Position numbers and translations under genes: made by a program. A stretch of DNA of 64,000 nt from Candidatus Dadabacteria bacterium (lineage in GTDB: Bacteria; Desulfobacterota_D; UBA1144; Nemesobacterales; CSP1-2), in assembly GCA_963805855.1 (NCBI GenBank), contig CAWDVW010000006.1, forward strand, positions 128,001 through 192,000, read 5' to 3'. The notes under the pieces were generated by a model. The model was not told where the DNA came from. It saw nothing but the letters and a program-made list of their open reading frames with translations, and ran no database searches. Shown one piece after another: positions 36,477 through 59,250 of this stretch. How positions within the stretch are numbered: the first letter of the stretch is position 1; each line of letters starts with the position of its first letter.

Positions 36477-36555
36477 GCTTTAACTACCAAATCGCCCGCA
36501 GCTTGCGACAGGCTTTCCGCTGTCATGGCAGTGGCACGCACCGCACAGTCATTGC

Positions 36556-36920
36556 TGCAGATGTTGGATATTTCGTGGACAGTATCTTAGATTTTAAATG
36601 GGCATTCAAAAAATTGCCAAAATCAATTCCGGAAGCGTTAAAAAAAGTGACAATCATTACTGTCATCTCGAAGGAGCATAGTGACTGAGAGAACTAATTA
36701 ATTATAGCAATAGATATCTCGCATTCGCTCGATACGCAAGCGTTTTTTGTTAGCCCTTGTCCTGAGCACAGTCGAAGGGTTGTTTCTTTGTATCAAGACA
36801 AAGAAAATAAAAGATTAAACGATGGATCCCCGATTAAAACATTCGAGGATGACGGATGAGTAAATTCCCAAGAAATTTGTCAGTTTTAGGATTTTGTCCA
36901 CGAAATATCTGACACTTACA
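36556..36920 (-). mobile_element. MITE copy C (inverted) with a perfect 5-bp target duplication, inside a REP-like cluster (~36490-37095)
   Basis: ATTGC|TGCAGATGTTGGATATTTCGTGGACA...TGTCCACGAAATATCTGACACTTACA|ATTGC. Confidence 0.85.
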
Positions 36921-37178
36921 ATTGCGAGCACTTCGACCCGCCTGTGCTGAGTAAAATTGAAGTACTCAGTGCAGGCTCCGGCGAAGCAATCTGCCACATA
37001 AATACTATAATCGACTGAAATCCGTGCGAGACGCTCTGCCCGTGTTGAAGGAGATTGCTTTGGGACTGCCGAAGTCCCTTTGCTCCAGGGTCATTCATTT
37101 TTTTATCGCTAATTACGATATTTAGTATAACCTGTTAGGATTTGAATGTTGGAATTCAGAGGGGGGGTTTAAAATATT

Positions 37179-40569: not shown

Positions 40570-40614
40570 GGGGAGTATGGGGAAATGGTTAAATCCATAA
40601 TTCTAGTTGGAAAA

Positions 40615-41631
40615 GGGGTCAAATCTTTTGTTTATAAGTTTTGTTTATAATATCTTCGACCTTTTTTCTAAACCTTTTGTCCTTCTCCATTTTTACCCGT
40701 ACCCAGTTACAAGCCCATCCTACCACCCCATAACTACTTACTCCAAACATCCCTGCTACCTCATTTAGCGTTATATCACATAACTGCTTTACTAAATGCA
40801 TCCCTACCTTCCTCGCTTCACTATCACTTCCCTTTCTCCACCGAAGCACCTCATCAACTCTTGTCCCATATGCCGTAGCCACATTACTAGCTACCTCATT
40901 CACCGACGGCCTCAACCATACTCTCTCATGCCGAGGATGCTCTCTTCCTATCTTGCCTATCTTCTCCCTTACCCTTTCCCTAAAATCCTCTCCTCCTAAT
41001 ATTGGACTCTGGCGACTACGAGTATAAAACTTTTTTAACTTATCCTCATTCCCCGATAAAACAAACTCCTGAAATTCTCTAACACTACGGAATTCCTCCA
41101 ATAACTCAGTTACATTAAGCCACTGCGGTGCCTTTTTTGGTTTCAAATAGTTCTTATGGCTGCTCCACTTGTATTCGTCAGGTTCTTTAGCCAGTCCAGC
41201 CTCAATAGGATTCAAATGTATGTATCGCACTACAGCCGTCAGATATCTATCACCGTCTATCACTATTGCCTTGAATCGACCCCGAAATATGGGACCGTCT
41301 CGTCCATGCATTCTGTTAAATCTCTGTGTGTATAGACCGTCAACATGGCGCATGACACGGGAAAGATTTGCCTCCGGGGTCCTTAGGCAGACGTGATAAT
41401 GGCTACTCATCAGACAGTATGCAAAGACCTCAATACCCCAACGTTCATGGGTCTCAGCGATAGTCTTCAGAAATTCCTCGAAGTCTTTTGTCTGTATAAA
41501 TATCTTCTGACGTGCGATCCCACGATTCATCACATGGTATATTGCACCCGGAAACTGAATCCGAAGCGGACGAGACATTATAGATAATTATAGGGGAATC
41601 AATTAGACTTCTAAACAAAAGATTTGACCCC
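40615..41631 (-). mobile_element. Element carrying a RAYT-type transposase, bounded by perfect 20-bp terminal inverted repeats
   Basis: GGGGTCAAATCTTTTGTTTA at 40615-40634 and its reverse complement at 41612-41631. Confidence 0.85.
40619..41578 (-). CDS. REP-associated (Y1/HUH) tyrosine transposase with C-terminal HTH (DnaA-C-like)
   Basis: YHVMNRG, AYCLMSSHYH (HUH), YIHLNP, YKWSS. Confidence 0.92.
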   Translation of the reverse strand: MSRPLRIQFPGAIYHVMNRGIARQKIFIQTKDFEEFLKTIAETHERWGIEVFAYCLMSSHYHVCLRTPEANLSRVMRHVDGLYTQRFNRMHGRDGPIFRGRFKAIVIDGDRYLTAVVRYIHLNPIEAGLAKEPDEYKWSSHKNYLKPKKAPQWLNVTELLEEFRSVREFQEFVLSGNEDKLKKFYTRSRQSPILGGEDFRERVREKIGKIGREHPRHERVWLRPSVNEVASNVATAYGTRVDEVLRWRKGSDSEARKVGMHLVKQLCDITLNEVAGMFGVSSYGVVGWACNWVRVKMEKDKRFRKKVEDIINKTYKQKI

Positions 41632-42074
41632 TAATTTATGTCACGCTGGATGGTCGCGACGAGGGCGCCCTCGTCATCCACCAGTTCGACGAGCTTCGAG
41701 GAGCGAATGACCTCACCACCCTGCTCGTGGAGGTACTCGGTCAGAATCGACTCGGTCACCTCCTCTGAGACGCCGATGTTGAACCCGTAACGACTGCCGC
41801 AAATTGAGAGGTCGATCTCTCCGAGTACTCTGCCCCCGGAGTGAAGTCGGGCCATGCGCTGCTTGACGCCCACAGTCAATAGGGGCTCGGGGATGCCCAG
41901 CGACTCAAAGACCTCAAGCGAGCGTGGGTGCACCACTGTCGCCCGGTCCCAGTGCAGCGGCGCTGGATGCGCATCGATGATACGACACTCAATCCCCCGG
42001 CGATGCAGTTCCGCAGCCAGGAGCAGCCCCGTCGGGCCTGCGCCCACCACGAGAACAGTCACATCAGGAACCAT
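41631..42074 (-). pseudogene. N-terminal fragment of an FAD-dependent monooxygenase
   Basis: VVGAGPTGL Rossmann motif; ORF ends at the TIR boundary; higher GC than surroundings. Confidence 0.8.
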
Positions 42075-42393
42075 GTCGAATCCACTTGAATATCATATTC
42101 GCATTTCAGGTCCAAAGAAGATGCTTCTCCCGTGCCTTTGTAGGTGTCTCGGTTAATTCAGTGATGAAGTCTCCCATTCTTTGTGGCAAACTCATTGGTC
42201 ATTCGAGGTTCATCGAGGAAAACAGCCATCTGCATCTCGCATTTCTTAGCCGAACTCGTAATTATACTGAATAATTCAATATAATCAGCTGTCAGGGTGA
42301 TAGTTAAGGATTCTATTTAATTTAAACCTGTTCGATTCATACACCCCATATGCTCTGACTATATATAAATAATAATCTCAAGTCAAAGAATGC

Positions 42394-42435
42394 TTCCTCC
42401 GTTTAAACCAAGCTTAACAAAAGGGGAGCGGTACA
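42394..42435 (-). repeat. Repeat copy R1
   Basis: GTTTAAACCAAGCTTAACAAAAGGGGAGCGGTACA. Confidence 0.85.
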
Positions 42436-42590
42436 TGACATTGACCTACATGCACTCATACATTATCATGAGCTACTATGGAACAACGTAAACTGAATGA
42501 TGCAGAAATTGCGCATATGCAAGTGAGGCTTCCAATTGAGCTGTATAAAATAATTAGACAGGTCGCCTTTATTGAGACAGGGAGGATCGA

Positions 42591-43430
42591 ATGCCTATCT
42601 ATATGGATCGTCATGACATCAAAGGCACGACTGCAACTGAAGTTGCAGAGGCCCATCAGAAAGATCTTGAAATCCAAGACAAGTACGGTTGCAAGGCCCT
42701 GACATATTGGTTTGATGAAGCAAATGGTACGACTTTTTGTTTAATAGAGGCTCCGAGAAAACAAGCTGTAGAGCAGATGCACCATGAAGCTCATGGACAT
42801 GTTCCCAGCGAAATCATCGAAGTCAACCCTGGGGCCGTGAAGGCGTTCCTTGGAAGAATCGAGGACCCGCCAATGCCAACCAAGTCGCCTGCGCCTACCA
42901 GTAACGTACCAATAATAGACTCTGCCTTTCGCACTATCATGTTCACGGATATGGAGGGTTCCACGACTATAACAACACGCCTCGGGGACTCTAAAGCCAT
43001 GGAACTCCTTCGTACTCATGATGCCATTATTCGCGATGTTATAAAGACTCATGATGGCAACGAAGTTAAACACACAGGTGACGGTTTCATGGTTTCCTTT
43101 TGCTCTGTTTCTCGCGCTGTAGAGTGTGCTATGTCTATTCAAAGGGCTGTTGCTTCTTATAATAATAAGGAGCCCATCGCTACTATCCACCTTCGCATTG
43201 GCATCACTGCTGGTGAGCCCGTCACGGGAGGCCAGGATCTATTTGGCTCCACCGTCCAACTCGCTGCTCGCATCTGTGACCATGCTAAACCTGAACAGAT
43301 TTTGGTCACACGTGTAATACAAGATCTGTGCATCGGCAAGAAATTGCCATTTTCCGACCAGGGTGAGATACCGCTACGTGGTTTCGATGAGCCTGTGCGG
43401 CTGTATGAGGTTAGATGGCAGGCGGCATAG
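42591..43430 (+). CDS. DUF4242 (SCO4226-like) domain fused to a class III adenylate/guanylate cyclase
   Basis: MPIYMDRH...AHQKDL...H..AHG; FTDMEGST, KHTGDG, DLFGSTVQLAAR. Confidence 0.9.
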   Translation: MPIYMDRHDIKGTTATEVAEAHQKDLEIQDKYGCKALTYWFDEANGTTFCLIEAPRKQAVEQMHHEAHGHVPSEIIEVNPGAVKAFLGRIEDPPMPTKSPAPTSNVPIIDSAFRTIMFTDMEGSTTITTRLGDSKAMELLRTHDAIIRDVIKTHDGNEVKHTGDGFMVSFCSVSRAVECAMSIQRAVASYNNKEPIATIHLRIGITAGEPVTGGQDLFGSTVQLAARICDHAKPEQILVTRVIQDLCIGKKLPFSDQGEIPLRGFDEPVRLYEVRWQAA

Positions 43431-43518
43431 TATGGAATTATATAAATTTCACAAATGTAATCCACAAATAAACTTAAATGTGCTCTGCTTAATTGTAGCC
43501 GAGACAAATTCAAGAACA

Positions 43519-43612
43519 CTTACCCCGAAAGTTTTTTAGCAAATACTGTGTGTCAAAGAAACTATTACGCCCCCTGGCAGGGGGGGGTAGGGTCAGCCGG
43601 TAGGGTATGGGG
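43519..43612 (+). repeat. G-rich ~92-bp repeat, copy L1
   Basis: Close match to 51134-51225. Confidence 0.85.
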
Positions 43613-43714
43613 GTAGCCTGCCCCCCTATAATAGGTCCATAGTTTAAGTTAGATTTTTGATAGAGAACCCTATATGTCGGGGATATTCTGAATAGCTAGG
43701 AAGCACTACATTCT

Positions 43715-43759
43715 CTATGGTTCCAACTTAATCCGAACTTAATAAAGGGAAGCCGTACA
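43715..43759 (-). repeat. Repeat copy R2 (diverged)
   Basis: CTATGGTTCCAACTTAATCCGAACTTAATAAAGGGAAGCCGTACA. Confidence 0.75.
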
Positions 43760-43822
43760 CTGATTTCTCACTATCTTTGGCTCTAGGAGTCAATTTTGGC
43801 TTTTTCGTCCTTGTGAAATTAC

Positions 43823-44278
43823 CTACCGAACCCTTACTACAGGAACAGCCCCTAGAACTTGGACATATTTTGTTTGGTAACTCCCTGCTCCCATCCCAAT
43901 AGGCATTCCACCTTTTAGATAGGTGCCCTTGCTGTGAGGAGGAATTGTGATGGGAAGTACCGCAGTGGTACTGCTTACCTGTTGGCCAGCGTTGTTATAT
44001 GAGGTGGAGTAGTAGTTGAGTTTTATTTCAATGTCCTTATACGCTATGTCCGCTGTATTCTCAATCGTGACATTACTAATCATAGCTACTCCACCCCAGG
44101 CAATAAAAAAAGACCAGTCAGTAACTTTAATGTACCACTCAGGATGTTGTTTCATTGAAATCGTAGGTTCCATATCTTGAGCCTTGGCAAATGGAGAAAG
44201 TAGGACCAGTAGGATAAACAGTTTTGTCGTTATATGGTTCATGTTTGTATTCTGAGAGCTAGAAGTATTAGTTACCAC
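43823..44278 (-). CDS. Secreted hypothetical protein, paralog of the 33499 gene
   Basis: QHPEWYIKVTDWSFFIAWGGVA...NYYST. Confidence 0.8.
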   Translation of the reverse strand: MVTNTSSSQNTNMNHITTKLFILLVLLSPFAKAQDMEPTISMKQHPEWYIKVTDWSFFIAWGGVAMISNVTIENTADIAYKDIEIKLNYYSTSYNNAGQQVSSTTAVLPITIPPHSKGTYLKGGMPIGMGAGSYQTKYVQVLGAVPVVRVR

Positions 44279-44303
44279 TATTATACACTAGGCTAATCTC
44301 CGT

Positions 44304-44348
44304 CTTTATTCCAGTTTAAACCGAGCTTGACAAAAGGGGAGCGGTACA
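44304..44348 (-). repeat. Repeat copy R3
   Basis: TTCCAGTTTAAACCGAGCTTGACAAAAGGGGAGCGGTACA. Confidence 0.9.
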
Positions 44349-44511
44349 AACTACCCTTTGTACCAATCCATATAGAGACTTTGCAACAACCACAATTCCA
44401 CCTGTCAGAGGGTGTGAGATTCAGTAGCAATCTGTCTATTCCGTAAAGACAATAAAGAATGTCTGCCGGCATTCCACCCGGCTGTTGTGCGACGTTCTCT
44501 ACAGGTAGGAT

Positions 44512-44615
44512 GAGGCAGACTGTTTTCTCATATTAACTCTTCCTCTGTTTTTTTTAATTCAACGGTAAGTGAGCCTATTATTTGGGTTAGCTCTTGATTC
44601 TTTTTACGAAGGCGA
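44512..44615 (-). repeat. 104-bp inverted copy of the IS3 orfA/orfB junction (48089-48192)
   Basis: Exact reverse-complement match by eye. Confidence 0.9.
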
Positions 44616-44714
44616 ATGGCGGATAAGGGAAGTGGTGCGATGTGCGATGATCTGGAGGGAAAAAGAAGGAGGCTGGATCATCAGATAAGCAGGCTTTTTA
44701 GGGCTGAGGGCAAA

Positions 44715-45584
44715 GTGCCTGCCAAATCACGACCCCTTCGTGCTTGCTCACAGGATAGCGGTTCTCGACCATCTGGCTAAAGGGAGATTCTATTGGGGTG
44801 TCGGGTCCGGTACCTTTATAGGTGACTTTGAGGCATTCGGGATTGACCCAAAAACAGGAGAGCAAAGGGAATTAACCAGTGACTCACTGGATTTTATCCT
44901 TAATTTGTGGAAAAACCCGAAGCCCGGTTTTTATGGAAACAACAGATGGAAATTTCGGGTACCAGAACCGCAAAATGACGTAGGTCTTGGCGTAGATATA
45001 AGTCCGTATCAGAGACCGCATCCCCCAATAGCCGTGGCGGGGATAACCGAAAGGTCTGAGACGCTGAGAATCGCCGGAGAACAGGGGATGGATACCCATG
45101 AGCATTAATTTCATACCAAAAAATGTGTTGATGACGCATTGGTCATCGGTCGAAGAAGGAGCCCGAATGTCAGGAAAAAACCCGGATCGCTCGAAATGGC
45201 GGATTGCAAGGGATGTCTATGTCGCCGAGACTACCGAGGACGCCCGTCGGGAGGTAAAGCAGGGAACACTGTCTAGGGATTTTACAGACTACTTTTTCAA
45301 ACTAGTCCCAAGGATTAGGGGCAATTTAAAACACCTTTAAAGTCGATAAATCTATGCCCGATTCGGATGTGACTGCTGACTACATGATCGATAATCTTTG
45401 GTTAGTCGGAAACCCTGATGATGTTGTCGACCAAATTAAAGAAGTTTATCACCATGTTGGCGGCTTTGGGGTGCTGCTTGTGATGGGACATGAATGGAAA
45501 CCCAAAGACAACTGGGTCAGATGCATGAAGCTATTGGTTGAAGAGGTACTGCCGCGCTTGAAAAATTTAGGGAATAACGCTTAA
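44715..45584 (+). pseudogene. LLM-class flavin-dependent oxidoreductase, 5'-truncated and frameshifted
   Basis: CLPNHDPFVLAHRIAVLDHLAKGR, PYQRPHPPIAVA, VGGFGVLL, split across three ORFs. Confidence 0.85.
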
Positions 45585-45681
45585 GGTAGGCTTCGTCGCC
45601 TCCATACTAATCCTCCCAGATCAATGGTGAGCTTCCCTTACGGTGGCAGACGGTACGACGCTCGGATTCCACCTGCATCGA

Positions 45682-46463
45682 TTAATCCGCATGCCTAATC
45701 ATGAACCCCTCCATCAGCGTCTGCAGCATGACGGGTGTCTCCTCCATCGGGTAGTGGCCCGATTCGATCTAGCAAACTCTATGTTGTCATGCCATTTCGT
45801 AAAAGTTGCGCGCTGCGCCTCGATCCGCTCGTTGGGGAGGTCGTATTTTCCGCAGATTACCAGAAATGGCAGAGTGACACAGCCCGCTTCAGGTGAAAAA
45901 TCGTGTAGTGTAAACATATCTAGGTAGCCTCGCGCCGCTGCAGCGGTTCGGGTCTGGCGCGCGCGGCGCATCTTAAACTTCTTCCACTGTGTCGAAAGTC
46001 GGTTACCCATGGCAAAGTCAGGAGTTCATGGAATTTCTCATCATCGGTGATGGAGTCGATGGCTTTCTGCCGCAACTCTTCGGGCATTTGAAGCCGGCTG
46101 CCGAGACCGCAGCGATAGCAACCACACTCTTGAGCGCTCTGGCACGTCGATTGCCAACCGCTCGACGACCATGCCGGTCATTGAGAAGCCAACCAAATGA
46201 ACACGATTCCAACTAAGGTGATCGATCAGCTCGAGCGTATCAGCGGCAGCCTCGGTTTCGTTGTACTCACCCGTGAGGTGGATGGAACGGCCGTACCCGC
46301 GTACGTCGGTCAGCACATAGGTGAATCGATCTACATCGAGATACTGCATAACCGGCTCCCAACTCGTGCAGTCACCCATCCAATCGTTGTAGACAACAAC
46401 CTTCTCGGTCCATGCCCGAGCAATCTGTGTCCCAAGAGTGCCAATGGTCACGACTCCCGTCAC
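45682..46463 (-). pseudogene. Alpha/beta hydrolase, frameshifted
   Basis: DVRGYGRS, HLVGFSMTG, LVICGKYD in different frames. Confidence 0.8.
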
Positions 46464-47023
46464 AATGCTGCAACGCTGAACTATAACGCCACCCGCGGAT
46501 GCCCAGCATCAAATCGCGGGCCCAACATCAATCTCAAATATTTATTCTACTCGTTCCAAATTTAAAACGCACATTACACTGCGCGTCAAAGTGATTGACA
46601 ATTTTTGTTACCAAAGATACCAATGATAACTAAGCGATTAATTCATTCTCCCAATGAACTAGGAGAATGGAACCTGATTACCAAAATGTGTCGTTACAGG
46701 TCTAGGAAATTCTTCTTTTGCGGATCAAAAATTAAGATTCGGTCTATTTTGTACAGGGTTAAATTAAGTTTTTATATGATCTATACACTCAGAACCAAGA
46801 TGGCCTTCTCACAGTTCGTCTTCTCGTGGTGCTGCGCGTCCCCCCCTAGACCAAAAACGCCCAATATCCCAAGACTGATTTCCCTCGCCATTGTTCGACC
46901 GATTTGTCTGGTGACACTGCTGTTCATGATGGTTTCAAGAGTTCCTTTATCAGCTGATGACCTTGATCTTCCAACCTTCATTTTCCATATCGCCACGAAG
47001 TTGAAAAAATACTTAATAATCAT

Positions 47024-47335
47024 TTGGTAAAAAAGACAAGTTTTTCCAATGAATTGTATCTCTGCGAAAAGTGTTACAGACTTTATGCGAGATTCTACGT
47101 AAGGATAGATTACGATGAAGATAAGACTTATACGACAGTGTACGTATGTAGCAAGTGTGAAGAGTTACTTAAAAGTATAAGGGAAGAAGAGATACCCTTA
47201 ATACCCTGTGCTAAATGTGGGGAAGAAAGCTCTAGAATACCGCCTGAGTTTGCTATGGGATTAAACTCCGATTTATGGAACGTATGGTACCAGCCTGTTG
47301 TTTGTCCTGCGTCAACTTTTATTAAGGTTACTTAG
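47024..47335 (+). pseudogene. Zn-ribbon (multiple CxxC) hypothetical protein, probably 5'-truncated
   Basis: CEKC, CSKC, CAKC; no clear RBS. Confidence 0.45.
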
Positions 47336-47385
47336 AAATGAACAGGGTAAGTCTAATTGATTTTTGAGAGTGGAGAGGTGTTAAT

Positions 47386-47763
47386 GTGAGCAAAACTGAA
47401 ACGCCAATGATTAGAAGGTACTGGGAGATGGTTGGTGGTACATTGATTGAAGAATTTCCTGTTGTTAAGGGAACAAGGTACCAAGGAGCGAGGAGAATAG
47501 ATGCGATAATAATTAAAAATGGTGAGAGGAGAATAGCAAAATCAAATGAAGTTTCTTTAAAAGGTAAGGATATTATTTGTGTTCAAGCTAAAAGTCATAG
47601 ACTTGGTATGTATTTAATGGGACAGACGTTTTTCTCTGAGCAGCTATTAAGGAGATTTGAGCCGAGTAGTGTCTCATGCGTTGCTTTATGTGCCAAAGAC
47701 GATGCAGTCCTAAGACCATTAATAGAACAGTATCCACAGATGAAAGTTGTTGTAATTGATTAG
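47386..47763 (+). CDS. Hypothetical protein with a PD-(D/E)XK nuclease-like motif
   Basis: GAGG RBS; E...RIDAIII...CVQAK. Confidence 0.6.
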   Translation: MSKTETPMIRRYWEMVGGTLIEEFPVVKGTRYQGARRIDAIIIKNGERRIAKSNEVSLKGKDIICVQAKSHRLGMYLMGQTFFSEQLLRRFEPSSVSCVALCAKDDAVLRPLIEQYPQMKVVVID

Positions 47764-47900
47764 AGTTGAAATCTCAGAATATCATAACGAGGATGAGTTA
47801 TTAGCTATGTTAGCACCATGGCTACGATATACTGCTCCCCATTAAGGAGTGAGTGTGATTAAGTGAGAAAATATCTGTAATAGACAATGGGGGAGCAACC

Positions 47901-48176
47901 ATGAAACGAAGAAGATGGGATTCTAAAGCCAAGACAAAAATAGTACTTGAAGGTCTGTCCGGTAGACCAGTATCAGACATTTGCAACGACTTCGGAATAC
48001 ATCAGAACCAATACTACACCTGGCGGGACAAGTTTTTATCAGAAGCCCACAGAGCCTTTGAATCCAAAAAAGACGGTGCACAAGTAAATCGCCTTCGTAA
48101 AAAGAATCAAGAGCTAACCCAAATAATAGGCTCACTTACCGTTGAATTAAAAAAAACAGAGGAAGAGTTAATATGA
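47901..48176 (+). CDS. IS3-family transposase OrfA (HTH)
   Basis: KTKIVLEGL...ICNDFGIHQNQYYTWRDKF, ends ELKK. Confidence 0.9.
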   Translation: MKRRRWDSKAKTKIVLEGLSGRPVSDICNDFGIHQNQYYTWRDKFLSEAHRAFESKKDGAQVNRLRKKNQELTQIIGSLTVELKKTEEELI

Positions 48177-48943
48177 GAAAACAGTCTGCCTCTGTATCCT
48201 TTAGTAACGAATACTTACTTACACGAATAAAGGATATAAAAGCGGAACATCCTTTCTGAGGTTATAGAAGAGTATGGGCATATCTAAGATATATAGATGG
48301 ACTAGTAGTTAACAAGAAGCGTGTATACAGGCTTATGAGAGAGAATAACCTTACCGTTAAGCCTAACACAAGACTAATAGCAAAGAGGATATCAGGAAGA
48401 CCAAAGCCAAGACCTGATAGACCCAGACAGTGGTGGGGAGTAGACATGACAAAGGTCATGACTGACAGTGGCCGGGTATATGTAGTAATAGTACTGGACT
48501 GGTATACGAAGAAGATAGTAGGTTACTACAGTGGAACAAGAGCCACAACCATAGAATGGCTGGAAGCTTTAGAGAAAGGACTAAACCGAGAGTTCCCCGG
48601 AGGGGTGAGAGGACATGAATTAAAGCTCATGAGCGATAATGGGAGTCAGCCTACTTCACTTAGTTTTATGAAAGCATGTTCCAATCTGGAAGTAGAGCAA
48701 GCATTTACCAGTTACAATAACCCGAAGGGTAATGCGGATACGGAGAGAATGATAAGAACGATGAAAGAGGAGCTATTTTGGCTAAGAGAGTGGAAGAGTG
48801 AAAGAGAGCTTAGTCATGAGCTGGATAAATGGATTAAGTATTACAACACAAGCTACCTTCATTCAGCACTTGGATACCGAACACCGATTCAGTTAGAAGA
48901 GGAATATTACAGGAATATCACTTCACATGAAAATGCTGCTTGA
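48173..48943 (+). pseudogene. IS3-family transposase OrfB (DDE/rve) with an in-frame stop at 48257
   Basis: HPF*GYRRVWA; WGVDMT, SDNGSQ, ERMIRTMKEE, YYN...HSALGY. Confidence 0.88.
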
Positions 48944-49055
48944 GTAATTTACTTCATAGTAATTACAACTTTTCCTTAGAGCCTTGGCTATAGTATAATA
49001 AGGGTGTAATAGATTTCATTTTAAGCCCTGTATTTAGATAGTCAGGGGTAATTAT

Positions 49056-49541
49056 ATGGCTCAACCAACTGACATAGCTCAGAATCATATTGTAAAAGAC
49101 CTGATGCTTTATCCTGTTTCCCCCTCAATACTTTATTATGTTGAACTGCCGGGAACCAAGTGCAAGATTATCCAAAACAATGGTAACAAACTCTACTGCG
49201 CAAAATATCCTATGCTTAAAGGACTGTTCAGAAAGGACATGGATGAAACTAAGAAATACGGAAAAATAATCTGCTATAAAGTGGCAGAGAAACTGGACAA
49301 CTTCGGCTTTTTCACCTCCGATGAGCGCCCTGAATATGGAATATCGTACGGTATATCCGAAAAAGAATTCGCGTATATGTTTGAGCTAATCGGGGCTAAA
49401 GAAGGCGAGCACTTAGTTGCAATGTTCGCATATCCGGAAAGAGAGGCACTTGAGTCAAAAATCTTTTTTGAAAAACTGCTTAGAAAGACTTACTTCTCCT
49501 ATATTCTAGATAAAAAAATTTTCAATATGTTTTTTGGTTAA
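49056..49541 (+). CDS. Stand-alone GAD-like domain protein (resembles the GatE/AspRS insertion domain)
   Basis: TKCKII...KGLF...GFFTSDERPEYGIS...IGAKEGE resembles GatE GIFHSDELPxYGI. Confidence 0.6.
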   Translation: MAQPTDIAQNHIVKDLMLYPVSPSILYYVELPGTKCKIIQNNGNKLYCAKYPMLKGLFRKDMDETKKYGKIICYKVAEKLDNFGFFTSDERPEYGISYGISEKEFAYMFELIGAKEGEHLVAMFAYPEREALESKIFFEKLLRKTYFSYILDKKIFNMFFG

Positions 49542-49632
49542 GTAAACTCTGTTTTCATCCCCGTAGGGCTCCCTCGGCTCTTGCTCATAAAGCAGCTAAT
49601 AGTTACAAGGTTAGGTTGGGAATGAACGAATA

Positions 49633-49677
49633 CTATAATCCAACTTAGACCGAGCTTGACAAAAGGGGTGCGGTACA
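49633..49677 (-). repeat. Repeat copy R4
   Basis: CTATAATCCAACTTAGACCGAGCTTGACAAAAGGGGTGCGGTACA. Confidence 0.9.
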
Positions 49678-49889
49678 ACGACCATTTAGACTTAATACAT
49701 TATATGACGATTGGGAAAACGCACCATCTTACTCGGGATGACCAATATGGATAACAAAATCGTGCTTGAATGGAGAGGTGCCTTCGACTGGTTTGGCTCA
49801 TCCGAGAACGTCACGGCCAGCCCTGACACTATGAACCCCGCTGCTGGGAACCTCTCTCTGTATACACGGAGTTCCTTAAGGGAATGAGC

Positions 49890-49937
49890 TCGACACAGTG
49901 GAAGAAGTTTAAGATGCGCCGCGCGCGCCAGACCCGA
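49890..49937 (-). repeat. 48-bp inverted copy of 45948-45995
   Basis: Exact reverse-complement match. Confidence 0.9.
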
Positions 49938-49999
49938 GAACCTATGCTGAGAGTAACCTCGCTTCTCTATCCTGTCTTCTTATTGTTATTGGTTCAGGC

Positions 50000-50238
50000 G
50001 GTTTTTCCACAAATTAAGGATAAAATCCAGTGAGTCACTGGTTAATTCCCTTTGCTCTCCTGTTTTTGGGTCAATCCCGAATGCCTCAAAGTCACCTATA
50101 AAGGTACCGGACCGACACCCCAATAGAATCTCCCTTTAGCCAGATGGTCGAGAACCGCTATCCTGTGGGCAAGCCCGAAGGGGTCGTGATTTGGCAGGCA
50201 CTTTGCCCTCAGCCCTAAAAAGCCTGCTTATCTGATGA
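50000..50238 (-). repeat. ~240-bp inverted copy of 44678-44917
   Basis: Reverse-complement match with about three differences. Confidence 0.9.
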
Positions 50239-50648
50239 GTGGTTTAATTCCAAATGGATGGCGGGTGTCTTTCCTCAGCAGGCATGGTCCGTCGCGGGTG
50301 ATGATAATCGCCCGGAAACAAGCCAGGCCAAGACCCAGGGGCACAAGCTCGCACAAGCCATCATCCCCCCCGTAGAGAAAGCCTTGACCCTGAAGTTCTG
50401 GGCTGCCCTCTTCTCCCTCAGGATTACATCAGCCACAAGCATCTCTCCCGATAGTATGTATACGTCCAGCGCACCCCTCATCGGGCACACGCCCAGATGG
50501 AAAACACAGGCTATGTTAATACTTCACCTCGACGAAGGAGTAACAATAACACCAAACTTTGCGCTATAAGACCTATAATCGGGAATTATAGGCATGCTCG
50601 CAGTCTAATTAATAGTTAGGCACAGAAAAGCGCAGGAACTGTCATCCA

Positions 50649-50975
50649 TTGGTAACAAGCTCTGCATACTTTACCACGAACGACGGGGTGAGGCTGCATT
50701 ACCTCGAAGCAGGTCACGGGAGACCACTCGTGCTGCTGCCGGGGTGGACACAGCCGGCCGAGACGTATATCTCGCGGTTCAAATCAGACCCTTACTCCAT
50801 TCTTATTGCTGAAATGCTCTTGAGGAAAACTACAGCCTTACAGGTTGAAAGAATATTTCGCTTTACTTCGGGAAAGGGTGACGCTAAAAAATTAGCCAGG
50901 GAAGGAATAAAACAGGGGTTTACCCATTTTGTTTCTGTCGGGGGGGACGGTACTGCACATGAAGTGGTGAATTGA
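50649..50975 (+). pseudogene. Chimeric ORF: hydrolase N-terminus + HhH-GPD glycosylase fragment + diacylglycerol-kinase-family fragment
   Basis: DGVRLHYLEAGHGRPLVLLPGW / DPYSILIAEMLLRKTT / VSVGGDGTAHEVVN. Confidence 0.7.
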
Positions 50976-51058
50976 AGGCGACAAAGCCAAACTTGATGAC
51001 CTGGTTTCAACGCTCGAGCCAAGCATTGGGTAGGAATCGGAAAACGAAATACTGGATA

Positions 51059-51099
51059 TTGGCCTGGCTTGTTTCCGGGCGATTATCATCACCCGCGAC
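51059..51099 (-). repeat. 41-bp inverted copy of 50291-50331
   Basis: Exact reverse-complement match. Confidence 0.9.
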
Positions 51100-51133
51100 C
51101 GTAGAGGCGGCTTCTAAGTGAATTGATGCATAA

Positions 51134-51225
51134 CCTACCCCGAAATTTTTAGCAAATACTGAGTGTCAAAGAAGCTATTACGCACCCTGCCAGGGGGGGG
51201 GTAGGGTCAGCCCGTAGGGTATGGG
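51134..51225 (+). repeat. G-rich ~92-bp repeat, copy L2
   Basis: TACCCCGAAA...GCAAATACTG...G-run-TAGGGTCAGCC.GTAGGGTATGGG. Confidence 0.85.
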
Positions 51226-51471
51226 TACGTAGGCCAGAGCTTTCATTTTCTTCTCTATAACCCCACAGACAAAAGAAAGCAATAAGGTATAACAACCATG
51301 ATTTCACCTGTCAGAGGGTGTGAGGTGTAGAAACCCACTGTTAGCGGGCATACGCTTTTATGACCAAGAGCCTAGGGAGCCGTGTGACTCCCTCCGCCTT
51401 GGGTTATACGTTTCTCGCTGGTGCAGGTGGGTGCATGCTGGTTTGGGCTACCACTCAGACGACCTGGATTA

Positions 51472-51990
51472 TCACGGCGTGAGCGTAGGTGAAGGCTCGC
51501 AACTGTATGATGCTTGTGCAGGGTCGATTTGGACGATGTTCTTCTGAGCCAGTTCGGTTGTGTACTGCGCTAGTCGGCATAGACACGTCTCAAATTGGGC
51601 TTCAGAAGTGCCGTTTGATTCGGGTTGGACGTCGCAGAACGGTGGTGCATTCCCGAGCGTGAAGGCTACGGAGCACCCTAGGCTGCTGCCATCGCGTATC
51701 GCGGTATTGGCGAACCTGTTCCCGTCGCCCACTGGCTGGGATAATGCACAACCATCAGATGGTAGCGAGTCGCATTGGGATGATGTGCAGTTGTCGAAGT
51801 CGATATTCTCGCAACTGCAAAATACGCCTCCCCAGCAATCTGTGGTCATGGGTACCTTGAAGTAGTCGCATGGGCACTCTGCTACTGCAGCGAGCTCGGC
51901 ACATGGGTCGCCGCCACCGCCATCACCATCACATCCAATGCCTACAGCTAGCAGAAATAGTAACGCTAAGAATATCTTATGAGGCTTCAT
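51472..51990 (-). CDS. Cys-rich hypothetical lipoprotein
   Basis: G-rich RBS, lipobox GIGC, DGDGGGG linker, many Cys. Confidence 0.75.
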   Translation of the reverse strand: MKPHKIFLALLFLLAVGIGCDGDGGGGDPCAELAAVAECPCDYFKVPMTTDCWGGVFCSCENIDFDNCTSSQCDSLPSDGCALSQPVGDGNRFANTAIRDGSSLGCSVAFTLGNAPPFCDVQPESNGTSEAQFETCLCRLAQYTTELAQKNIVQIDPAQASYSCEPSPTLTP

Positions 51991-52080
51991 AATATCCCCC
52001 CCCCTTACGATTTTATTTGAGTAATACGCCTGACAGCACTTGGCAACTTTATCATATGTTTGATGCGAAATGCAAGGATA

Positions 52081-52124
52081 TTATGATTCCAACTTAAACC
52101 GCCGTTGACAAAAGGGGAGCAGGA
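52081..52124 (-). repeat. Repeat copy R5, abutting the integrase remnant
   Basis: TTATGATTCCAACTTAAACCGCCGTTGACAAAAGGGGAGCAGGA. Confidence 0.85.
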
Positions 52125-52127
52125 TAG

Positions 52128-52418
52128 GCAATAAAAGAAGCCGGTGTTAAATGCACCTTCCACAGTTTAAGACATACATTCGCAAGCAACCTGGTTACAC
52201 GCTTGAAAGAGGATATGGTAACGGTAATGGAGTTAACCGGACATAAAGATATTAGGATGCTAAAACGATATAGCCATACAAAAAAAGAGCTAAAAAAAGA
52301 GGCTATGTCAACATTGGGGAATCATCTAAAATCCCTCGATTTGGATACATCCATAGACACCTCCTCGGACACCTCTACAGGTGACAAGATTTTCACCAAA
52401 TTATCTGTTATATCTTAA
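52128..52418 (+). pseudogene. C-terminal remnant of a tyrosine recombinase/integrase
   Basis: FHSLRHTFASNL...ELTGHKDIRMLKRYSH catalytic motifs; N-terminal part missing; points toward the tRNA-Glu 3' end. Confidence 0.9.
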
Positions 52419-52444: not shown

Positions 52445-52522
52445 TGGCGTCCCCGAGGGGATTTGAACCCCTGTTACCGCCTTGAAAGGGCGATGTCCTA
52501 GGCCAGGCTAGACGACGGGGAC
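52445..52522 (-). tRNA. tRNA-Glu (TTC)
   Basis: GTCCCCGTCGTCTAG...CTTTCAA loop...GTTCAAATCCCCTCGGGGACGCCA. Confidence 0.96.
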
Positions 52523-54719: not shown

Positions 54720-54919
54720 TGTAAATCTTAGATAATTCGTGGATAAGATTCTTACAATTTGATGAGACTTTCTGAGAATCAAAAGGGCTTGAACGGCATT
54801 CCAAGTCCTGACGAAAACCAGGATCTATTCAGTATCAAGACAAAGAAGTTGGAAAGAAAAGTAAGATGATTGACGAAAATACTTTTAAAGATTCTTCCTT
54901 GAAATATCTGGCTTTTAGA
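54720..54919. mobile_element. Short MITE-family copy D with a 5-bp target duplication
   Basis: ACTAC|TGTAAATCTTAGATAATTCGTGGATA...GAAATATCTGGCTTTTAGA|ACTAC; interior matches the left part of copy B. Confidence 0.65.
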
Positions 54920-55064
54920 ACTACGACATATCTTAGGTCTAATATGGAGCTATCCCTACAAAATTTTTTGATTAGATACCGCAGTAATAAAGGGTATAAA
55001 AATTTTTTAATCAAGTTATAATGTACATTCTGATTTTCAAATCTTTCGAAATTGTGAGGTAATA

Positions 55065-59020: not shown

Positions 59021-59250
59021 TTTTCTTTGTCTTGATACTGAATAGATCCTGATTTTCGTCAGGACATCAGAACTTTTTCCTGTCATCTCGAACGCATGTG
59101 AGAGATCTAGTAGTTAAGTCGGTAAAAGCAAAAGACAAAGGAAAGATTTCTCATGGAACGTGTACTGAGCTTAGCCGAAGTATTCGAAATGACATGACGG
59201 ACTGTTCGCTCAAGTAACGATATCCTTCTGCTTGCAGCGGGGTTATTCGT
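59021..59250. repeat. Composite REP/MITE fragment cluster
   Basis: 59021-59065 matches the reverse complement of 54805-54845; remainder matches the 57215 unit and GCAGC/GCTGC palindromes (also at ~2108-2140). Confidence 0.65.

Follow-up and report, generated by a model that had tools for sequence, protein, structure and literature searches.

In integrons, co-oriented attC repeats separate single intact genes, and IS231-type elements are an example of mobile insertion cassettes (MICs). The IS3-family insertion sequences (IS) IS2 and IS911 are copy-out-paste-in elements (PMC3299598, PMC9330008). In IS2 the right inverted repeat (IRR) is the sole donor end, and the joined ends have a 1-bp spacer and a 17-bp junction promoter (PMC3299598). 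Both transporter IS (tIS) and MICs have been defined (PMC9330008, PMC7986276). Capture of neighbouring DNA by a single IS has been assigned to IS1380 members, the transposable modules (TMos) of ISPme1 and ISEcp1, and possibly to the IS3 member ISPpy1 (PMC9330008, PMC4224046); TMos are described as using chance sequences that resemble an inverted repeat (IR), with variable endpoints (PMC9330008). Insertion targeted to IRs is described for IS911 and IS30 (PMC7986276, PMC9333248). Here we analyse a stretch of 64,000 nucleotides from a Candidatus Dadabacteria bacterium (GCA_963805855.1, contig CAWDVW010000006.1, positions 128,001 to 192,000; 'the window'), in which five copies of a 45-bp site, R1 to R5, occur in an island at a tRNA-Glu gene. 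The evidence supports R4 as the working end of a duplication-bounded, cargo-carrying, two-ended IS3 element. More broadly, we assign a probability of roughly 0.8 to the reading that these are IS3 elements in which passengers separate the transposase from a distant right end, and that they move by an IS2-like copy-out/paste-in route that would accept any co-oriented downstream IRR as donor.

The 45-bp sites and the R4 element

All five copies lie in a single orientation, with tips at 42435 (R1), 43759 (R2), 44348 (R3), 49677 (R4) and 52126 (R5). Over the last 40 nt, identity among the four ungapped copies (R1, R3, R4 and R5; R2, with a 1-nt gap, was left out) is 26–35 of 40, compared with only 8–12 of 40 in the adjoining inner DNA. 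A profile of the site run on the 3.1-Mb contigs of this genome (94% complete) found 28 copies at E<0.15, and the reversed genome used as control gave none at E≤1. With tips mapped and an empty control search, the five co-oriented sites of an earlier sequence-only reading are confirmed. The site is not confined to this island: besides the 28 genome copies, a 38-nt pattern (≤3 mismatches; zero control matches) is present in 22 of 120 genomes of the class, one of which has 40 matches. No exact 38-nt match was found in viral contigs. The best-scoring match ends 41–49 nt from the tip in 143 of 195 distinct copies, with a tail to ~24 nt; of the discrete unit that had been proposed, the common stopping point mostly holds and the fixed inner boundary does not.

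The 45-mer aligns gap-free to the 3' end of orfB and is the reverse complement of the IS3 left end. In two compact relatives, L016 and L019, the stop codon of orfB falls within this terminal motif (L denotes collected relative loci, C contigs of this genome, and X1 to X4 other sequencing runs, represented by assembled contigs). The resemblance of the terminus to an IS3 inverted repeat, based on an 11-of-13 match of the consensus to TATACTGCTCCCC at 47828, holds. So does the report of an outward TTGACA in three copies, which is intact 16 nt from the tip in R3, R4 and R5 and reads TTAACA in R1 and TTAATA in R2. The distal-end repeat is 45–49 bp long with a mean column identity of 84%. The five sites are IRRs of IS3-family elements.

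The R4 element spans 1850 bp (47828–49677, forward strand) and consists of a left inverted repeat (IRL), orfA, orfB, a 161-aa passenger gene and R4 (49633–49677). Flank comparison placed a copy of ACGA on both sides, at 47824–47827 and 49678–49681. The IRL (47828–47877) starts TATACTGCTCCCC and R4 read inward starts TGTACCGCACCCC, giving terminal imperfect inverted repeats as expected of IS3 elements, whose ends are TG...CA or an IS2-like variant; the initial TATACT of the IRL is the predicted −10 box of a circle-junction promoter. An A8 run in orfA (47901–48176) would allow a −1 frameshift into orfB (48173–48943). The hallmark of IS3 transposases is a DD(35)E triad with K or R seven residues past the E, and orfB has D91, D155, E191 and K at +7. 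Scans of the window's open reading frames (ORFs) against Pfam and NCBIfam gave HTH_Tnp_1 (orfA), rve and rve_3 for the transposase ORFs, and transpos_IS3 as the top NCBIfam family for both; the orfB score (E 1.7e-38) is under the whole-protein cut-off because orfA and orfB were scanned separately. By the sequence features tested, the element belongs to the IS3 family.

The right end expected next to orfB is missing. Behind the orfB stop lies instead a conserved 112-bp leader that resembles a promoter and ribosome-binding site (48944–49055) and is found before unrelated genes in relatives. It is followed by the passenger gene (49056–49541), which resembles the GatE insertion region only weakly (E 3e-6, far below cut-off). 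The unit from the end of orfB to R4 recurs in contigs of runs X2 and X4. Immediately left of the element a 125-aa ORF (47386–47763) looks PD-(D/E)xK-like by eye and has no Pfam or NCBIfam match. An inverted 104-bp IS piece on the reverse strand (44512–44615), 100% identical to 48089–48192, is rearrangement debris that a run-X3 contig spans with no differences.

Distal duplications and passengers in the relatives

A search with orfB as query gave 111 loci (31 from genomes and, from metagenomes, the best 80 of 259), to which two copies of this genome were added. Once duplicates were removed, 67 copies reached 70% identity or more and had their left flank mapped; many of their contigs stop too early to reach a distal right end. 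Such an end was present in 32, of which 20 showed an exact 4-bp duplication at that end (shuffle control: mean 0.97, maximum 5 in 5000). At the proximal IRR, beside the transposase, a duplication occurred in only 2 of 67, though 15 retain an intact-looking proximal tip. L031, removed by the identity filter, likewise has a distal 4-bp duplication. An earlier, overlapping tally had given 10 of 23 left ends with a distal duplication, one element being counted twice, and added non-autonomous cases. The target duplication measures 4 bp in 21 elements and 5 bp in one, L147, where it encloses four stacked IRRs; these moved as one unit. Several IRRs within one duplication-bounded unit are also seen in L030, L112, L150 and L071.

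Proximal-end identity is 7–17 of 21 in the 20 elements with distal duplications, versus 16 and 20 in two compact ones, and the right end next to orfB has mostly decayed across the relatives. Both orfA and orfB are open in 14 of the 21 duplication-bounded elements, and the A8 run is present in all 21. Non-autonomous versions (L071, L055, L089 and C2:259682–260420) also occur.

These observations bear on the view that the island holds ordinary IS debris, in which compact IS3 copies inserted at random into tolerant DNA and decayed, and the genes between ends never travelled. Compact elements with a homologous end do exist (L016, L019, L145 and L160), R1, R3 and R5 have no left end, and the island contains other debris. 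The exact distal duplications in 20 of 32 copies, the better preservation of the distal than of the proximal end, and the recovery of one passenger at two sites (below) all speak against it. For R4 this explanation is already refuted; it can still hold for single orphans, and as a general account we regard it as very improbable. The sequence-only reading had named as its own refutation an abundant IS with such an end and no cargo variation between strains: the compact copies were found, and cargo varies strongly. Its first alternative, one-ended or non-autonomous IS3 cargo delivery, survives as regards the delivery of cargo by IS3, and is corrected as regards the single end, since the IRL and the distal IRR share one duplication.

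An array of integron-like sites recombined by the nearby tyrosine integrase would account for the single orientation, the intact genes between sites and the adjoining integrase. The site itself, however, corresponds to an IS3 left end in reverse complement and is homologous to the 3' end of orfB. IRR tips are joined to arbitrary coding positions, including the integrase at R5, a paralogue of a 151-aa protein at C5:830196 and sister orfB genes in L034, L083 and L158, which argues against a site-specific recombination array. The 4-bp duplications go with no consensus among 20 reconstructed target sites, and an island with an intact integrase, L184, holds a single site in the opposite direction. 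The recombination-site cassette array suggested earlier is therefore not supported, given the arbitrary tip junctions and the missing target consensus, and the integron-like explanation, which the duplications contradict, seems to us extremely unlikely.

The 21 bounded elements carry 0.72–5.0 kb of cargo with 28 ORFs of more than 80 aa, and 20 of the 21 have at least one such ORF intact. With IPTL tails trimmed, only two homologous pairs were found among the 28. Many passengers look secreted, and three that were tested exceed the IPTL-CTERM cut-off. One passenger, a gene of 345/347 aa, occupies two sites: L024 (flanked by ACCT/ACCT) and C5:820817–818231 (GATT/GATG) are 89% identical. The related L140 and L166 also occupy different sites. 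The unit moves together with its passenger. Around the passenger two modules recur. The leader lies directly behind the orfB end in 9 of 12 matches; in the window and L143, where the genes that follow are unrelated, it extends as far as the start codon. A terminator module sits just inside the right end, and one terminator is followed by an IRR in 23 of 31 copies, a count biased by loci that were chosen for their IRRs.

This tidy layout raises the question of a dedicated cassette exchange, in which an expression slot made of the leader and of the terminator with its 45-bp end would have whole genes swapped through it by a directed, gene-precise right-end reaction such as single-end capture. 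The intact ORFs in 20 of 21 bounded elements are what such a slot predicts, as are the placement of the leader behind orfB, its reach to the start codons of unrelated genes, and the terminator–IRR pairing. Moreover, the insertion of L147 at the inner boundary of a second IRR produced a tip-to-45-bp tandem, and blocks adjoining IRR tips have further copies elsewhere in the genome (99% identity at R1, 98% at C6:104594 and 93% at C4:16353). On the other side, inner boundaries range from ~24 to 49 nt, leader similarity stops earlier in L103 and L105, and selection for expressed, intact passengers explains the layout. IPTL-CTERM genes form a large host family (32–77 per genome in four of the five genomes searched, the four being relatives; none in this genome), so that ordinary recombination can swap passengers. 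No second recombinase travels with the element, and a match to an AEP-TOTE primase, as in a helper like the IS-excision enhancer (IEE), was not found in the 94% complete genome, a search that left other IEE domains aside. We consider a dedicated exchange of this kind improbable. The same doubt, slightly milder, attaches to the fuller proposal that the clade is a transposase-driven gene-cassette system whose fixed slot and portable 45-bp end capture, stack and swap whole genes, mainly for secreted and IPTL-CTERM surface proteins, by a directed right-end reaction. If true, the slot would mean an integron-like outcome reached by DDE chemistry with no second recombinase.

A proposed route of movement and the orphan ends

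Under the transposition reading given at the outset, the right end would be cleaved and attached at a distance of 1 nt from the left end, giving a TTGACA-17-TATACT junction promoter. The position of the −35 box and the 1-nt IRR-to-left-end junctions seen in L118, L083 and L147 match the plan set out for IS2 (PMC3299598). When a distal end is chosen, the circle would carry the DNA in between. Within accessory islands an element may insert into a sister copy or close to it and so acquire that copy's passenger and right end; ends would thereby accumulate in one orientation, and arrays would grow by nested insertion. Misdirected right-end attack together with loss of left parts could leave orphans such as R1, R3 and R5, and tip-to-gene junctions. 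Tips or junctions at or inside resident ends are found in L118, L083, L147, L086 and L192. At L086:17735–17738 two right ends overlap by 4 nt at their fused tips.

The origin of new gene-to-IRR junctions is a more tentative matter. Small end-bearing derivatives (48–177 bp) might land behind genes, with subsequent deletion, and recombination between paralogous surface-protein genes might swap some passengers; we put this at a little under even odds. End-bearing mini-elements of ~48, 146 and 160–177 bp do exist. Mini-elements of 47–48 bp, with a left-end tip and a right end, were observed at L040:4955–5001, L040:5750–5797 and L147:5600 onward, and a single nucleotide separates one of them from an IRR tip. 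We also considered, and rejected, the 45-mer as a freely moving mini-element that makes a duplication of its own: no offset was enriched among 91 copies.

Several observations weigh against the transposition reading or against parts of it. The window orfB is interrupted, with an in-frame TGA at 48257–48259 in this assembly where runs X1, X2 and X4 have TGG. Twelve of the 32 distal cases have no exact duplication, although two of these match at 3 of 4 positions, one is the 5-bp repeat of L147 and one has a cut flank. Neither a circle junction (49677 to 47828) nor an empty site was seen among the joints listed for four runs, where contigs cannot show absence. Junctions onto IR-like DNA account for 16 of 193 tips versus 4% by chance. 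Neighbouring IRRs are co-oriented in 34 of 49 pairs, yet in 17 of 25 when only the first pair per cluster is counted (p=0.054), a weak trend. A left end was found for none of R1, R3 and R5, and their history is accordingly inferred. No duplication surrounds the IS407-like left ends of the 146-bp units described below (0 of 23), as independent movement of the kind seen in miniature inverted-repeat transposable elements (MITEs) would leave, which weakens the idea that these units supply new ends by moving alone; two full IS407-like parents that were checked also have none. Finally, with 10 of its 48 inner branches starred, the transposase tree has too little resolution for capture events to be counted.

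Two further regularities were tried and dropped. In this genome 15 of 28 IRRs cluster near tRNA 3' ends versus 12% at random, the clustered copies not being independent. Of the 15 IRRs that lie up to 12 kb downstream of a tRNA, 14 point toward it (7 of 8 loci). An orientation rule was rejected because other genomes were mixed, as judged by eye on a partial tRNA list. A leading-strand bias of IRRs was not seen (16 of 28).

In the island, each site has its cargo on the inner side, to the left. Of the genes that had been placed beside the sites, R1 (42391–42435, forward strand, no left end upstream) pairs with a FAD-dependent monooxygenase gene and not with the cyclase. The 5' part of the monooxygenase gene (41631–42074, reverse strand; Pfam FAD_binding_3) is cut at 41632 by a RAYT-type element. 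Outside the R1 tip, and beginning exactly at it, a forward-strand block (42436–43463) with an SCO4226-like gene and a guanylate cyclase ORF (42591–43430) is 99% identical to C5:817981–816954. A run-X4 contig aligns over 42000–42435 and continues with other sequence past the R1 tip. The RAYT-type element (40614–41632) encodes 319 aa with Y1_Tnp and a DnaA C-terminal helix-turn-helix (HTH), has 35-bp terminal inverted repeats and is where synteny with relatives ends on the left.

R2 (43715–43759) belongs to a 146-bp forward-strand chimera (43614–43759), in which an IS3 left end and first orfA codons, which we take to be of the IS407-like subgroup, are fused to the 45-bp end. The compact IS407-like parent is 1.28 kb with its own right end; an autonomous parent ending in the 45-bp IRR was rejected, as both copies with extracted ends carry a different end of their own. 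The 146-bp units form the distal end of L030, L038, L112 and L150. A 115-bp conserved module lies just outside their IS407-like left end at C6:136195–136310 and at four other places in the genome. L013:1–1140 is a natural hybrid IS, with an IS407-like left end and orfA start joined to the orfA, orfB and right end of another element.

On the inner side of R3 (44304–44348, forward strand) is the gene for a predicted secreted protein of 151 aa from a multi-copy host family (43823–44278, reverse strand); host promoter DNA is fused ~40 nt inside the R3 tip. L073 keeps this R3-type inner junction with a different outer flank, and one row for run X1 joins an orfB end to an R3-like end. On the inner side of R5 (52082–52126, forward strand) is a reverse-strand gene for a predicted lipoprotein of 172 aa (51472–51990), and 51100–52100 is found in a run-X4 contig. 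The R5 tip abuts the C-terminal remnant of a tyrosine integrase (52128–52418, forward strand), whose intact 365-aa counterpart stands at tRNA-Glu in L184 (genome G007). The reported coincidence of R5 with the integrase truncation is thus correct. The integration site is the reverse-strand tRNA-Glu(TTC) gene at 52445–52522. Orthologous tRNA-Glu sites differ: the fetched stretches of L181, L185 and L186 have no such end, and L184 has its one.

The window holds other repeats. A 95-bp duplicated block (43518–43612 and 51133–51225) ends in a G-rich GGGGTAGGG motif, which resembles motifs of phage packaging regions, and lies 16–19 nt beyond an IRR tip in runs X1 and X2. In runs X1 and X4 an IRR tip is immediately succeeded by a second repeated block (51290–51386 and 44385–44435, also at C5:826787). 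Pieces of luciferase-like and hydrolase genes recur in inverted, nearly identical form (44678–44917/50000–50238, 45948–45995/49890–49937 and 50291–50338/51052–51099); they are debris of recent rearrangement, and several frameshifts in 45900–46500 are not present in other runs. A MITE-like abundant repeat of ~400 bp with internal inverted repeats (36548–36937) has dozens of copies in the genome and genus, and a ~120-bp repeat (54801–54930; inverted partner 59023–59065) has many copies in genomes G001 and G002. Elsewhere, tRNA-linked islands at C5:822210–824212 (L204) and L184:393–4134 contain an intact tyrosine integrase and a 158-aa protein resembling, by eye, a small terminase HTH protein, a satellite-like backbone.

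Comparison with known systems

IS3 elements are normally compact, and here most testable clade members carry cargo, with near-unique loads. For an IS3 member mobilising adjacent DNA, a 2022 review names one possible case (PMC9330008). The clade offers a natural series for how an IS can turn into a transposon with gene cargo when no second IS copy is involved, and is a candidate route for the spread of surface-protein genes in Dadabacteria-like sediment bacteria. An annotation that stops the IS at its transposase leaves out the actual right end. Neither this element nor a transporter clade within IS3 was found described in the literature searched; ISfinder, TnCentral and supplements lay outside that search, and a prior entry may exist. 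The best transposases in plasmid collections are only 32–36% identical.

The element resembles IS2 and IS911 in its orfA/orfB −1 phase, DD(35)E triad, long imperfect IRs, outward −35 box in the IRR, −10 box in the IRL and short duplication, and IS2 in its predicted 1-bp junction spacer. Unlike IS2 and IS911, most testable copies end at a distal IRR 0.7–5 kb past orfB and carry genes, and the duplication is 4 bp where the IS2 text implies 5 bp (PMC3299598). As with IR targeting by IS911 and IS30, some junctions fall at or inside resident ends, but these are a minority (16 of 193) and most orphans remain unexplained in this way.

Integron arrays share the co-oriented repeats between single intact genes. 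They differ in that target duplications are present here and no crossover point is fixed. The adjoining integrase is the C-terminal remnant of a tRNA-island tyrosine integrase.

Like tIS and MICs, the elements keep passengers within IS ends and occur in non-autonomous versions; unlike them, they combine IS3 chemistry with very high passenger turnover, retained leader and terminator modules, and right-end arrays. As in a TMo, one IS mobilises DNA past its own 3' end by way of a more distant end. The passenger lies inside a duplication-bounded unit and moved with it, as expected of a transporter IS or TMo. In TMos of the ISPme1/ISEcp1 type a strong outward promoter of the IS drives the passenger; what is seen here is a conserved leader that resembles a promoter. 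In contrast to the chance IR-like end of a TMo, the distal end is a conserved 45–49-bp repeat that replaces the element's own decayed end across the clade, and several such ends can stack. The transporter IS/TMo principle is known; what is new is a conserved distal end with near-unique loads in an IS3 clade.

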